NCBI GenBank assembly: GCA_963796055.1
Contig: CAWCKH010000003.1
Coordinates: forward strand, 256,001 to 320,000
DNA from: an uncultured delta proteobacterium
GTDB taxonomy: Bacteria > Myxococcota > Myxococcia > Myxococcales > Myxococcaceae
Direction: 5' to 3'
DNA length: 64,000 bases
The position numbers and the translations under genes were made by a program. The notes under the pieces were generated by a model. It was not told where the DNA came from. It saw only the letters and a list, made by a program, of their open reading frames with translations, and did no database searches. This document shows positions 56,786-61,292 of this stretch, one piece after another. Every line of letters begins with the position of its first letter. Positions within the stretch are counted from its first letter, which is position 1.

Positions 56786-58144
56786 TCAGGGTGCTCCCTC
56801 GGCCCCGGTGCGAGGGGGCCAGACCGCCCCAGGGGGGCCGGGGCGTCCGGCCTCCTCGTCGCTCCGGACCAGGTCGGCCCGGGACGAGCCCCTCGGAAGC
56901 CGGAGACGGACCCGCGTCCCCACCCCGAGCTCCGACGAGAGGGACACCGAGCCGCCCAGCGCGCGCACGTAGCTGTCGACGATCGCCAGCCCGAGCCCGT
57001 GGCCCGTGCCCTCGGAGGTTCCCCGGAAGAACGGCTCGAACGCACGGCGCGCGGCGCTCGCCTCCATCCCCACGCCGTTGTCGACGATGTCCAGGGTCAT
57101 CCATCGTGGGTCGATCCGGCTCGATACCTCCAGGTGGCACGCACGCTCCGCGGCGCGGTACTTCAGGGCGTTTCCGAGGACGTTGCGGAGAATCTGCCCC
57201 AGCACCTCGGGCGCGCAGCGCACCGTCCCCTCCTCGAGCTGGAGCCGGAGCTCAGCCTGGGCCGCGGCGCCCAGCTCCTCGAGTGCCTCGTGTACCGCGC
57301 CGGGCACCTCGGTGTGCCCCTGCGGAAGGCGCCCCGAGCGGGAGAAGGCCAGCATCGCCTCGATGAGGGCGGACATCCGGGACGCGGAGCCGACGATCCG
57401 GGAGGCGAGGCGCGCGTCCGCCTCGTCCCTTCCGGAGCGGACGATGAGGCTCGCCAGGTTGTGAATCGGCACCAGCGGAGTGCGCAGGTCGTGGGCAGCG
57501 CGGGCGGCAAACGCCTCGAGCTCGTGGTTCTTCGACTCGACCAAGTCGAGACTGCGCGCCGTGGCCTGGCGTTCCCGGGCCATCGAGCGGAGCCGCGAGG
57601 CCGCGACCTGGATCACCACCAGCAGCACCACGGCTCCGGCCAGCGTGTCCACCAGGATCTGCCGCCGTCCCAGGCCGAGGAGGCGGGTCCCGATCGCCTC
57701 GGCCTCGATCCGGTTGATGGCGATGAGGCGGTTCACCGACTCGACTGCGGTCCGCGTGTCGCGCCCGAGTGCCTCGCGGTCTCCCCGCGCGCGGTCGCGG
57801 GAGAGCGCGTCGGTGAGTCCGCGGAGCGTGAGCCACTCGGGGCGCTCACCCTCGAACGTCGCCAGCGGCTCGTAGGCCTGCACGTCGCGGGCGAGCCACT
57901 CCAGCGCCTGCAGCCCGCCCGGGTTGCTCGCCGCTTCCGATGCCTGCGCCGGGGCCAGGCGCAGCAGCTGCCAGCGCATGTCGTCGGCCAGCTCCACGGA
58001 ACGCAGCGCGTTGGCCGACAGCGCCTCGGTGCCCCGCGCGGTCGCCGACGCCACCCAGGCATCGACCAGGCCCACCAGGAGAATCACCCCGGCGACGACT
58101 CCTACGGAGAAGATGCCGCGCCTCGGCTTGCGCAGCTCGAGCAT
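56786..58144 (-). CDS. Membrane-bound sensor histidine kinase
   Basis: Two TM segments, AAHDLRTPL, NVLGNALKY, DNGVG, FEPFF, GHGLGL. Confidence 0.9.
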   Translation of the reverse strand: MLELRKPRRGIFSVGVVAGVILLVGLVDAWVASATARGTEALSANALRSVELADDMRWQLLRLAPAQASEAASNPGGLQALEWLARDVQAYEPLATFEGERPEWLTLRGLTDALSRDRARGDREALGRDTRTAVESVNRLIAINRIEAEAIGTRLLGLGRRQILVDTLAGAVVLLVVIQVAASRLRSMARERQATARSLDLVESKNHELEAFAARAAHDLRTPLVPIHNLASLIVRSGRDEADARLASRIVGSASRMSALIEAMLAFSRSGRLPQGHTEVPGAVHEALEELGAAAQAELRLQLEEGTVRCAPEVLGQILRNVLGNALKYRAAERACHLEVSSRIDPRWMTLDIVDNGVGMEASAARRAFEPFFRGTSEGTGHGLGLAIVDSYVRALGGSVSLSSELGVGTRVRLRLPRGSSRADLVRSDEEAGRPGPPGAVWPPRTGAEGAP

Positions 58145-58302
58145 GGCCTCCACGTACCACCGCTCACCCGCGCACCGATCCACGGCGCCGCGTCCACAGG
58201 CGACCGGCCGTCGAAAATCCGATGAAGTCCGGCCCAGGCGCAACAGGGTCACAGCTCACAGCGGTGGCCCCGGCCCGGGCGGCTACACTCCCCGGGAAGT
58301 CG

Positions 58303-59568
58303 ATGCGAACCTCCCGGGCCGCGCTCATCCTCGCCGTCCTCGTCTGGGCTCCCGCACGCGCCGGGGACGACGAGGAGCTCCTCCGCGAGGCGGAGCGGAT
58401 GGTGCGCATGCAGGGCGGCGGGGCCGCCTCGGTCGAGGAGCTGCGTGCGCTGGTCGCCGAGACGCTCCCCCGGGTGGGAAAGGTGATGCGCCTGCCGGTT
58501 CCGGCGCGGATCGACCTCAAGGTGGTCTCCCGGCAGCAGGCGCGCGCGGCGCTGCTGGAGGTCCTCCGCCGCGACTACCCCGGAGATCTCCTGGAGCGTC
58601 TCTCGGAGGCCCTGGCCGCCGTGGGGCTGGTCGCGCCAGGAACGGACCTCCGCGCCGAGGCACAGGCGCTGTACGGCGCGAACGTGTCCGGCTTCTACGA
58701 TCCGCGCCAGCGGCGCCTCTATCTGCTGTCGGATCAACCGCTGGCCGCGCAGACCCTCGTCGTCGCCCACGAGCTGGCGCACGCCGTCCAGGACGAGGCC
58801 ATCCCACTCGACGCCGCCTCGCGGAAGGTGCGGGCCTCGGAGGACGCACAGCTGGCGCTGTCTGCGGCCATCGAGGGCCAGGCCCAGGAGGTGGCGGCGC
58901 TGGTGCTCGCCGGGGACGCCGGAGCCGGCGACGAGGGACTCGAGCTGGGCAGCTTCCTCACCGACGCTGCCGCTGCGAGCGCGGCGATGGCCGCCGGTCA
59001 GGCCTCGGTCCCGTGGCTCGGGCTCCAGCTGTCGTTTCCCTACGCCCAGGGGGCACGCCTGGTGGCGGCGATCCGGACCCCGCAGGACCCGGGCGCGACG
59101 TCGCTCCTGCACCGCTTGCCGCGGTCCACCGCGCAGGTCCTCGACCCGGCGCTCTACCGCGCGGACGAGCGTCCCCGGGAGGCCCGCCTCGACCTCGCCG
59201 CCCGCATCCCGGGGAGCGCGGCGGTCTACGCCACCACGCTCGGGGCGGCCAACCTCAACCTCTTCGGGGAGCTGCACGGCGGCGGCGAGCTCGGCCGGGA
59301 CTGGCGCGGAGACCGGCTGGAGACCGTCCGCCAGGGGAGCCAGCTCTGTGCCGCGTGGGCGGTGGCCTTCGCCTCGCCCGAGGGCGCGGAGCGCCTGGTG
59401 AAGGCCTGGGGCGGAGCGCTCGGGGGCGGAGCCGGCCAGGCCGTGACCCAGCCGGACGGGTCGCGCTCCGTCGTCCGGCAGAGCGGGAGCGTGGCCGTGC
59501 TGCTGCAGAACGTGCCGCCCGCATTGGTCAACGCGCTGGTCTCGGCGGCGGCCGGCGCGTTCCGGTAG
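58303..59568 (+). CDS. Exported zinc metalloprotease-like protein
   Basis: Signal peptide, GFYDP, AHELAHAVQD...AAIEGQA, FPYAQG, PRSTAQVL.P, W.GD. Confidence 0.75.
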   Translation: MRTSRAALILAVLVWAPARAGDDEELLREAERMVRMQGGGAASVEELRALVAETLPRVGKVMRLPVPARIDLKVVSRQQARAALLEVLRRDYPGDLLERLSEALAAVGLVAPGTDLRAEAQALYGANVSGFYDPRQRRLYLLSDQPLAAQTLVVAHELAHAVQDEAIPLDAASRKVRASEDAQLALSAAIEGQAQEVAALVLAGDAGAGDEGLELGSFLTDAAAASAAMAAGQASVPWLGLQLSFPYAQGARLVAAIRTPQDPGATSLLHRLPRSTAQVLDPALYRADERPREARLDLAARIPGSAAVYATTLGAANLNLFGELHGGGELGRDWRGDRLETVRQGSQLCAAWAVAFASPEGAERLVKAWGGALGGGAGQAVTQPDGSRSVVRQSGSVAVLLQNVPPALVNALVSAAAGAFR

Positions 59569-59949
59569 CTACTTGCCGCCCTTGGCCGGGGCGGAGAGCT
59601 GGCGGACGTAGGCCACCACGGACTGGACCTCCGCCGGCGACAGCTTGGTCGCGGGCATGTCCTTCGACAGGCCCTTGGCCGGACCGCCGCCGGTGATGAC
59701 CCCGGCCAGGAAGTCGTCCGAGCGCTTGGAGAGCGCGGCGCGGTCGGTCAGGTCCGAGGGCTTGGTCGTGTAGTAGGCCGCGTCCTCCCCGTCGCCCTTC
59801 CCGGTGACCCCGTGGCAGCTGGCGCACTGGCGGTCGTAGATCGCCTTCCCCGCTGCCGGGTCGGGCTTCGCCGCCCCTGCAGCCGTGGCAGCGGTGGCGC
59901 CGAGGACCGCGGCCAGTGCGGTGACCCGCATCGAGTTCCGGACCTCCAT
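59569..59949 (-). CDS. Class I monohaem cytochrome c, exported
   Basis: Signal peptide, GKAIY..QCASCHG..GKGDG, distal MP, VVAYVR; GGAG RBS. Confidence 0.9.
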   Translation of the reverse strand: MEVRNSMRVTALAAVLGATAATAAGAAKPDPAAGKAIYDRQCASCHGVTGKGDGEDAAYYTTKPSDLTDRAALSKRSDDFLAGVITGGGPAKGLSKDMPATKLSPAEVQSVVAYVRQLSAPAKGGK

Positions 59950-60010
59950 GCGACTCCTCCTGGCCCCCCGGGGGGCGACGCCGCGCGAGACTAGCCTGCC
60001 GGAGCGCGCA

Positions 60011-60421
60011 CTACGGCCTCGCGGTGGGCTTCCCTGCGTCTTTCCAGCCCTTCAGCCCGGGCGCGAGGACGCTCACCCGGGTGTAACCCGCCTCGACCGC
60101 CCGACCGGCGGCCGTGTGCGAGGCCGTTCAATGCCTGTTGGAGCAATAGAAGACGAGGGGCGCGTTCCGGTCCGCGGGAAGCTCCGTCCTGAGATCGTAC
60201 GCCTCGAACGAGCTCAGCAGCCTCGCGCCGGGGATGACCCCGTTCTTCTCGCGGAACTCCGCGTCGTTGGCGTCGAGGACGGTGACCGGGCTCCTGGCGT
60301 CCTTCTGCATGGACTCGAGCTCGGGCACCTCGATGAACCGGAACTTCTCCTTGGACTCCGAGGCGATGGTCAGCCCCGGGGCGAGCACGAGGCCCAGGGC
60401 CAAGAAAGCGAAGCGCGTCAT
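60011..60421 (-). CDS. Exported rhodanese-like protein, probable selenoprotein (Sec98, TGA at 60128-60130)
   Basis: Signal peptide; VLDAN..GVIPGA..LVFYCSNRH-TGA-TASHTAAGRAVEAGYTRVSVLAPGLKGWKDAGKP completes the rhodanese fold; TAG at 60011-60013. Confidence 0.85.
60089..60127 (-). promoter_or_regulatory. Bacterial SECIS-like hairpin
   Basis: Directly 3' of UGA: stem CGGCCGCC/GGCGGUCG around loop GGUCG, alternative lower stem GCCUCG/CGAGGC; loop starts 21 nt after UGA. Confidence 0.75.
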
Positions 60422-60581
60422 GGTCCCCGCGGTGCTAGCCACCGGCGCCACCGGTGGGCAAGCCAATTTCGCGCACCGTCCCGCCGTCCATCCGGTACGA
60501 CCTCGTCCGACCCCGGATGGAGGTCGGCTGTTCTGCGGGCCAGCTGGCGAGTAGGCGAGCTTCCGCTACAGTGTCGACAAG

Positions 60582-61070
60582 GTGACCCGGCCCCTGACCC
60601 GTCGGCTCGCTCCGCTCCTCGTCATGCTCGGTGGATGTGGTGTCGCCGCGCCGGAGATCGACCCGGCGGCCTCCTGCACCCTGGGCTCCGTCCCCGTGCT
60701 GCTCGAGCAAGGCGTCGCCCTCCGCGGTTCGGCCGAGGCCAGCTGCCGGACGTTCGCCTCGATTCTCGAGGACTACCGGGCGACGTTCGAGGAAGCCTGG
60801 GGGGCCGCCGCGCTGCAGGAGGAGGGGTGGACGGTGCGGGTGCGCGCCGGCAGCGCAGCAGATGCGGAGGGGCACACCGGAGTCACCTACCACCACTCGA
60901 GGGTCGTCGACGTTGCCGAGGTTGCGCTGGAGACCTTTCCTCACGAGCTTCGCCACGTGCAGCTGGGGCGGGGCTCCGACGACCACCACGGCTGGTGCAG
61001 CAGCTTCGCGCCGTGGGAGGAACGGGTGCTCGGCGTGGACGAGCGGGCGTATCTCGGGTGCCCGCCGTAG
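60582..61070 (+). CDS. Small lipoprotein with HExxH motif
   Basis: Lipobox LGGC, FPHELRHVQL..DDHHGW; several Cys. Confidence 0.65.
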   Translation: MTRPLTRRLAPLLVMLGGCGVAAPEIDPAASCTLGSVPVLLEQGVALRGSAEASCRTFASILEDYRATFEEAWGAAALQEEGWTVRVRAGSAADAEGHTGVTYHHSRVVDVAEVALETFPHELRHVQLGRGSDDHHGWCSSFAPWEERVLGVDERAYLGCPP

Positions 61071-61077
61071 TCCTTCT

Positions 61078-61254
61078 TCAGCCCGCGGTGTGGGAGGTGG
61101 GCGCCACCACCGAGGCGTAGGTGCCGGCGGTCACGAAGTTACGGACAATCGCGCCCGAGCCGCCGAGGCCGATGACGGCGAAGATGGCGCCGGCAACGAG
61201 CAGGCCGAGCGAGTGGCTGTGGCGGGTGGCGCTGAAGAGAGTGGGGGTATTCAT
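61078..61254 (-). CDS. Small single-TM protein (58 aa)
   Basis: GGAG RBS, one hydrophobic helix, upstream sigma-54-like promoter. Confidence 0.55.
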   Translation of the reverse strand: MNTPTLFSATRHSHSLGLLVAGAIFAVIGLGGSGAIVRNFVTAGTYASVVAPTSHTAG

Positions 61255-61292
61255 GGGAGGCTCCGGGGTGAAGCGAGGCACCCATCCCCCAC

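Follow-up and report, generated by a model that had tools for sequence, protein, structure and literature searches.

An apparent stop codon in a rhodanese gene, predicted to encode an exported protein, is almost certainly read as selenocysteine (Sec), and the gene would on this evidence be whole. The window analysed here is a 64,000-nucleotide stretch of contig CAWCKH010000003.1 (positions 256,001 to 320,000) from an uncultured member of the Myxococcaceae, whose genome assembly spans 5.53 Mb and is 98.5% complete. Standard gene calling ends the product with ...LVFYCSNRH after 97 codons, at TGA 60130-60128, and it is this 97-aa product that the databases list, a truncation by standard annotation that the original prediction, made from the DNA alone, had anticipated. 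The same prediction described a 136-aa frame containing Cys93, Sec98 and 38 codons past the TGA, which was found as claimed; the strand, absent from the claim, is the minus strand. The features that define the gene are as follows.

60011..60421, minus strand: full rhodanese selenoprotein gene, from ATG at 60421 to TAG at 60013-60011, 136 aa, with TGA as the putative Sec98 codon
60128..60130, minus strand: in-frame TGA, the putative Sec98 codon (of 86 distinct family genes, 46 have TGA here and 40 a Cys codon)
60143..60145, minus strand: Cys93 codon (TGC) at the canonical rhodanese catalytic position (Cys in 86/86; aligned with the FYC of solved rhodaneses)
60038..60322, minus strand: rhodanese domain PF00581, residues 34-128 (Pfam profile, AlphaFold2 model and structure match)
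60014..60127, minus strand: read-through tail of 38 codons that would complete the fold (translation, model and pN/pS)

The C-terminal part of the rhodanese domain had been said to lie beyond the TGA, and the profile scores agree: the read-through protein reaches 43.5 bits on the Pfam Rhodanese model (residues 34-128; cut-off 22.2), against 20.2 bits, under the cut-off, for the 97-aa stump. Both the profile and an AlphaFold2 model built from a 54-row alignment (mean pLDDT 88.8) leave the stump without the C-terminal third of the rhodanese fold, and in the model the tail supplies a helix (100-110), a strand (116-119) and a second helix (122-128). Across 11 close orthologues pN/pS is 0.16 over the final 26 codons, which places the read-through tail under purifying selection.

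The search for orthologues covered 150 further genomes from this family, one of which was left out of the counts, leaving 149. At least 41 of these 149 carry the TGA form among the matches listed, and the TGA stands five codons past the Cys in every one of 42 TGA genes fetched. Within the genus, eight of ten genomes contain a full-length orthologue with a single TGA, 74-88% identical over nearly the whole length, and the remaining two assemblies are 75% and 68% complete. A base-call error at the TGA is ruled out, because the same TGA recurs in 41/149 other family genomes. Named relatives are labelled as Myxococcaceae, other Myxococcota and one Binataceae, and a sample of the phylum gave matches in 26 of 121 genomes, the 28 matches comprising seven TGA forms (five of them outside the family) and 21 Cys forms. 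Collapsing duplicates and removing L075 and L076, both distant rhodaneses with a single Cys, together with the unparsed locus L077, left 86 distinct genes; 46 of them have TGA at position 98 and the other 40 have Cys, never Trp, and position 93 is Cys in all 86. The residue that the original prediction had held decisive, with Trp, Arg or another residue counting against it, is therefore Cys or TGA throughout this set.

An unrooted quick tree (85 rows, 116 columns) contains five changes between Sec and Cys, three of them forced by strong branches. Other residues of the loop differ between the two forms: His102 is present in 46/46 Sec forms vs 16/40 Cys forms, and among Sec forms Arg or Lys occupies position 96 in 41/46 and Ser position 101 in 43/46. 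The enrichment of His102 and Arg96 may reflect ancestry, because about half of the Cys rows come from one clade. Five loci (L109, L110, L111, L151 and L154) carry a third Cys three residues past position 98, in place of the usual Ser101 (C-x4-U-x2-C), and L152 is an all-Cys version of that motif. A Sec form (L017) and a Cys form (L078) lie about 1 kb apart and convergent in one genome (G050:C87:66652-68454), and several other genomes also contain both forms. In some Cys forms the rhodanese domain follows a PDZ-like region (assigned by eye) or N-terminal stretches rich in Cys, His and Lys, and tandem domains occur too (fused and tandem proteins P0204 and P0218; P0137, P0154, P0225 and P0258).

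Directly past the UGA, the GC-rich hairpin with a GGUCG loop was found as it had been described.

60094..60114, minus strand: candidate bacterial SECIS with an 8-bp stem and GGUCG loop (loop 60106-60102), supported by folding, covariation and a drop in synonymous rate

Counted from the U of UGA, the stem pairs nucleotides 17-24 with 30-37 and the loop occupies nucleotides 25-29, 21 nt past the codon. The published bSECIS model calls for a loop of 3-9 nt, a stem of 4-16 bp and a G in the first two loop positions, with a spacing of 16-37 nt and a minimum free energy of at most -7.5 kcal/mol (PMC13188914). The hairpin falls inside all four constraints, with a 5-nt GGUCG loop, 8 bp, 21 nt and a folding energy between -21.9 and -26 kcal/mol (-26 kcal/mol for 51 nt). 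Set against shuffled sequences in this 71% GC genome, z is -2.30 for 51 nt, -1.75 for 42 nt, -1.63 for 91 nt and -0.47 for 61 nt; by folding energy alone the hairpin is weak, modestly better than shuffles.

By comparison across TGA and Cys rows, the hairpin is in excess of chance, because 94.1% of stem cells are paired in 19 distinct TGA rows (0/500 shuffles as high) vs 55.0% in 35 Cys rows (498/500 shuffles as high). Two stem pairs have changed on both sides among the 19 distinct TGA rows, the five core stem pairs are complete in 44/46 TGA genes vs 0/40 Cys genes, and the loop reads GGTCG in 39/46 TGA genes. Codons fixed by the stem are GCC in 20/20 and GCG in 20/20 TGA genes, against 16/35 and 11/35 among Cys genes. 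In the 11 close orthologues pS over the 12 SECIS codons is 0.072 vs 0.385 upstream and 0.446 downstream, an approximately fivefold lower rate of synonymous change across the hairpin; the rows are related, and these pairing and synonymous-rate figures are descriptive. Among the five distant TGA forms of the phylum sample the pairing register is shifted in two and the loop begins with C in three.

The genome search for selA, selB, selC and selD, set beforehand as a possible refutation, recovered all of them above cut-off (selA 417 bits, selB 307.5, selD 386.3 and tRNA-Sec 70.4). Of 59 tRNAs found, tRNA-Sec is the only one with a TCA anticodon, and TGA terminates many ordinary genes of the same genome. 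The genome's SelD (L005, G000:C4:58620-59549, minus strand) appears to be a selenoprotein itself, with an in-frame TGA in a U-x-x-K motif. Across the family, selA is present in 39 of the 41 TGA-bearing genomes and the other two contain both selB and tRNA-Sec, whereas, of nine genomes that lack selA and contain stop-free forms only, the three tested have neither selB nor tRNA-Sec. Taken alone, selA co-occurrence is weakly informative, because 133 of the 149 genomes carry selA. Two genome-wide UGA/SECIS scans were set aside as surveys: one returned 122 candidates that were mostly ordinary gene ends and missed SelD, and the length filter of the other lost even this rhodanese gene.

Insertion of Sec at codon 98 through SelB, tRNA-Sec and the GGUCG hairpin is, on this body of comparison, very close to certain. 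The opposing view, in which the TGA truly ends a shortened gene or pseudogene, arose by sequencing error or is read as Trp or Cys, is scarcely credible. It can draw on the 97-aa database product and on the modest z-score of the hairpin taken alone, but it would have to accommodate the same TGA in 41/149 other family genomes and in five genomes of other families, purifying selection past a codon at which the stump still lacks a third of its fold, homologues with Cys and never Trp, and a genome in which the one TCA-anticodon tRNA found is tRNA-Sec and TGA ends many ordinary genes.

The gene is, as far as homologues can tell, one member of a widespread myxobacterial subfamily that is cut short in databases. 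When the best 120 of 162 matches in protein databases were examined, 116 ended exactly four residues past the Cys; the rest were three full-length Cys forms and one protein without the motif pattern. The stumps are named 'hypothetical protein' or 'rhodanese-like domain-containing protein' by NCBI. A systematic annotation error would be corrected, a 97-aa stump, often a 'hypothetical protein', in NCBI, JGI and ENA sets, and it spans at least 41 of the 149 sampled family genomes. Farther out, 263 of the 1.84 billion representatives searched matched the profile at E <= 1e-30, and among the best 150 of these distant representatives C-x4-C was present in 157 of 158 parsed loops, with two unparsed proteins likewise C-x4-C. 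In the tandem proteins P0136 and P0148 both Cys residues have been lost together in one domain.

Rhodanese selenoproteins are already known as a predicted kind, and the stand-alone exported C-x4-U form appears, from sequence comparison, to be new. A 2026 review counts 119 selenoprotein families, with five rhodanese forms (UxxS, UxxG, CxU, UxxG and, for TsoB, UxxxxU) that are all catalogued as predicted and none as verified (PMC13188914). The string CxxxxU is absent from the available text of that review and of PMC9312934, rhodanese or sulfurtransferase selenoproteins are listed without a C-x4-U motif in the available parts of PMC2398784 and PMC1976440, and the available part of PMC1794560 gives 11 selenoproteins for Anaeromyxobacter dehalogenans, none of them a rhodanese. 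The letters 'rhodan' do not occur in the main text of PMC12013277, PMC13326102 or PMC1914089, and one rhodanese table entry, with no motif given, appears in the portion available of PMC5029168. Literature on rhodanese CXXXXC motifs and on myxobacterial or Anaeromyxobacter selenoproteins likewise does not describe the form, which is undescribed in the literature searched, though the original TsoB paper, BSepDB and older supplements may include members. A C-x4-U rhodanese would be no surprise to a selenoprotein specialist; what the catalogue would gain is a stand-alone C-x4-U loop that links C-x4-C rhodaneses of unknown function, such as BH2092, with the U-x4-U of TsoB.

TsoB (NF045694, 'rhodanese form 5') is the closest of the catalogued forms, a rhodanese with two chalcogen residues at the same x4 spacing, and gives this protein its best NCBIfam match (38.9 bits, with residues 24-134 aligned to model positions 40-157); all 54 aligned family members match its model. 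TsoB is, however, a 572-position fusion with two Sec residues and a cut-off of 805, whereas the protein described here is a stand-alone 136 aa with Cys first and one Sec, and its gene ends at TAG with no DsbD-like fusion. The U-x4-U motif is not seen in the family, since the first position is Cys in 46/46 Sec forms; positions in the two proteins are equated from the published motif and the range matched by the HMM. TsoB itself was not found over cut-off in one and then two genomes searched, and a TGA at L128 was rejected as a TsoB candidate, lying upstream of an unrelated MoeB-like frame. The LYCAU rhodanese-related (seleno)protein (NF041203, 'form 3', CxU) is also small and has a catalytic Cys followed by Sec in the loop, but its Sec lies two residues past the Cys, vs five here, and the score here is 32.9 bits against a cut-off of 115. 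Residues 98-101, U-T-A-S, would fit the bare 'UxxS' label of form 1, a comparison made by label only (PMC13188914).

Of the solved rhodaneses, BH2092 of Bacillus halodurans (PDB 3nhv, 3o3w) has a C-x4-C loop according to its alignment with family member P0254 and matches this protein with Z 14.5, rmsd 3.4 and 116 residues aligned, but it contains Cys only, is about 20% identical and is a structural-genomics entry whose title gives no function. TIGR03865 (PQQ-dependent catabolism-associated CXXCW motif protein) is rhodanese-like and has by name a second loop Cys; the spacing differs, and the 33.5 bits scored here do not reach its cut-off of 128. No PQQ enzyme occurs among the neighbours scanned. 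The GlpE model gives 15.3 bits vs a cut-off of 102. PspE of E. coli and Sud (PDB 1qxn) are single-domain rhodaneses among the structure matches, neither of which contains Sec; Sud is periplasmic. PspE, also periplasmic, uses its one Cys to transfer sulfur from thiosulfate and depends on an external thiol as acceptor (PMC2593051; PMC10215317).

The protein is predicted to leave the cytoplasm, and its gene may have a promoter of its own.

60362..60421, minus strand: predicted Sec-pathway signal peptide, about residues 1-20 (heuristic; cleavage probably after Ala20)
60432..60461, minus strand: promoter-like site (by eye), TTGCCC at 60461-60456, 18 nt, TAGCAC at 60437-60432
59569..59949, minus strand: monoheme cytochrome c gene, downstream (PF00034, 51.1 bits)

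The signal peptide is a call from visual inspection and hydropathy: the N-terminus has a basic start and a hydrophobic core (9-residue hydropathy up to 2.82), and the region is of low confidence in the AlphaFold2 model. Among 99 close homologues of 94-99 aa, the core is present in 98, the basic start in 97 and a strict A-x-A in 82, with a twin-arginine motif in none; by the same kind of heuristic, a lipobox-like motif occurs in 30/46 Sec forms and in none of the gene's own clade. These heuristics support export of the rhodanese selenoprotein. The second promoter element, TAGCAC, ends 10 nt before the ATG, with no Shine-Dalgarno sequence; by eye, a CTTG element lies at a similar distance in 11/11 close orthologues and a TAGCA-like second element in most, and a consensus promoter scan upstream of the gene returned 0 sites. 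A short-leader promoter belonging to the rhodanese gene is therefore at best weakly suggested.

The downstream cytochrome c gene was considered as a partner and rejected, since it is kept in close relatives only: it follows the rhodanese gene in all close orthologues and is a neighbour in 19 of 66 loci searched, every one a close orthologue, and it does not recur beside Sec forms that are more distant. It may have its own promoter; at 59950-60010 in the window a TAGGCT/TAGTCT element is present in 11/11 close orthologues, followed in most by an AGGAGG site. No neighbour that could indicate an operon-based function recurs across genera, nor does any sulfur-metabolism or Dsb gene recur beside the gene across genera. 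Three further neighbours are conserved within the genus: an HExxH metallopeptidase-like surface protein at 57940-59568 on the plus strand (87 bits on NF038145, below its cut-off), a lipoprotein-like ORF with HELRH at 60582-61070 on the plus strand, and a 67-aa ORF at 61078-61281 on the minus strand, the latter two with no family match.

Membership of the rhodanese domain family is indicated by a profile score over cut-off, a rhodanese fold and a Cys at the first loop position. The model aligns with GlpE 1gn0 over 105 residues (Z 15.7, rmsd 2.1), and other structure matches besides BH2092 (above) are Sud (Z 13.5), the As/Sb reductase 2j6p (Z 13.3) and PspE (Z 10.8), with Cdc25 phosphatases likewise among them. 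As far as the model can tell, the fold does not choose the chemistry, since the As/Sb reductase and Cdc25 phosphatases match equally. Cys93 had been placed at the usual catalytic position, with Sec98 in the same loop, and both the alignment to solved rhodaneses and the invariant Cys uphold this. The active-site loop is two residues longer by alignment than that of the single-Cys solved matches 6mxv and 2hhg, and is not the short Cys-x4-Arg type loop of thiosulfate sulfurtransferases of the GlpE/PspE type.

In the mechanism proposed, the GGUCG hairpin would recruit SelB and tRNA-Sec and so place Sec at codon 98, and signal-peptide cleavage would leave a domain of roughly 116 aa in the periplasm, many relatives being predicted lipoproteins. 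A sulfane-sulfur substrate (polysulfide, persulfide or thiosulfate) would load sulfur onto the Cys93/Sec98 pair; Sec98 would then resolve it, releasing sulfide or handing the sulfur to an acceptor, and the Cys93-Sec98 selenenyl-sulfide so formed would be re-reduced by DsbD-fed periplasmic thioredoxin-like proteins. His102 and the basic residue at position 96 might tune the selenolate or bind an anionic substrate. The net result would be a rhodanese with a built-in resolving residue, acting as a sulfane-sulfur reductase or transferase and not as a plain carrier. An exported redox rhodanese of this description, with a self-resolving Cys93-Sec98 selenenyl-sulfide on sulfane-sulfur substrates and DsbD-linked re-reduction, is on balance probable.

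Internal resolution of the sulfur is proposed because rhodaneses pass sulfur to dithiols, releasing sulfide and giving a disulfide (PMC2593051), and the loop here has a second Cys or Sec. DsbD-linked re-reduction is proposed because in TsoB a rhodanese with this spacing is fused to a DsbD-like part; two DsbD-like matches are present in the genome, on other contigs, and no DsbD fusion was found in three matches to longer family forms out of 7999 scored candidates, a weak test. The lengthened loop, unlike that of tested thiosulfate sulfurtransferases, counts against a sulfurtransferase reading, as does the lack of such activity in many rhodanese domains (PMC9369223). A more specific proposal, tentative and rather doubtful, is that the uncatalogued exported Cys-x4-Sec rhodaneses are self-resolving, DsbD-fed, Se-dependent enzymes that reduce polysulfide or persulfide in the cell envelope of myxobacteria and Binatota. 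Geobacter has a periplasmic selenoenzyme for polysulfide reduction, a multiheme cytochrome (PMC13510729), which could serve as an analogy only. If the polysulfide or persulfide reductase proposal is true, the rhodanese fold would have been turned into a thioredoxin-like Se-S redox cycle, and what selenium contributes could be tested directly on the naturally occurring Cys and Sec versions, which in places lie 1 kb apart in one genome. The small, soluble, well-modelled protein, with its natural Cys and Sec orthologues, should in any case be an easy system for the function of rhodanese selenoproteins.

The same Cys/Sec pair might instead move electrons and not sulfur, in a periplasmic thiol-disulfide or peroxide oxidoreductase in which Sec98 attacks and Cys93 resolves. 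Nucleophiles of redox motifs often sit just ahead of a helix, and in the model Sec98 directly precedes helix 100-110; the two loop residues are strictly paired, TsoB ties the same spacing to a DsbD-like part, and catalogued selenoproteins are mostly homologues of thiol oxidoreductases (PMC13188914). Such an enzyme would nevertheless have a rhodanese fold with Cys at the sulfur-carrying position, and a thioredoxin or Dsb gene is never a recurring neighbour, which makes this an unlikely account, if a plausible one.

A role for the pair at the cell surface in binding or reducing soft metals or metalloids (As, Sb, Hg, Cu or selenite) is improbable. The rhodanese-fold As/Sb reductase match, the third Cys in three variants (C-x4-U-x2-C) and the Cys/His-rich N-terminal extensions on some Cys forms all point that way, as does a weak match to the chromate-resistance rhodanese ChrE model; the ChrE score of 16.8 bits is, however, far under the cut-off of 120, and no metal-resistance gene recurs, with one ArsA-type ATPase in 1/61 neighbours scanned. 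It is very improbable that Cys93 alone carries sulfur, as in PspE and Sud, and that Sec98 merely guards it against over-oxidation through a reversible bond. PspE, a periplasmic single-domain rhodanese, indeed manages with one Cys (PMC2593051; PMC10215317), but Cys or Sec at position 98 in 86/86 genes and the retention of a costly SECIS suggest a role in every turnover.

A second hidden selenoprotein gene may be present in the same genome, outside the window. At about 1768666-1769682 on the plus strand (G000:C4; L120:841-1854), a DedA/VTT membrane domain is fused to a C-x-U rhodanese with a hairpin past the UGA; of 13 genus genomes 12 have a match, and each of these retains the TGA. The fusion scores 79.7 bits against NF041203 (cut-off 115) and is not named in Table 1 of the review, in the text available (PMC13188914). 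A DsbD-like gene in divergent orientation is about 0.3 kb away from it, and a single short ORF separates the two.
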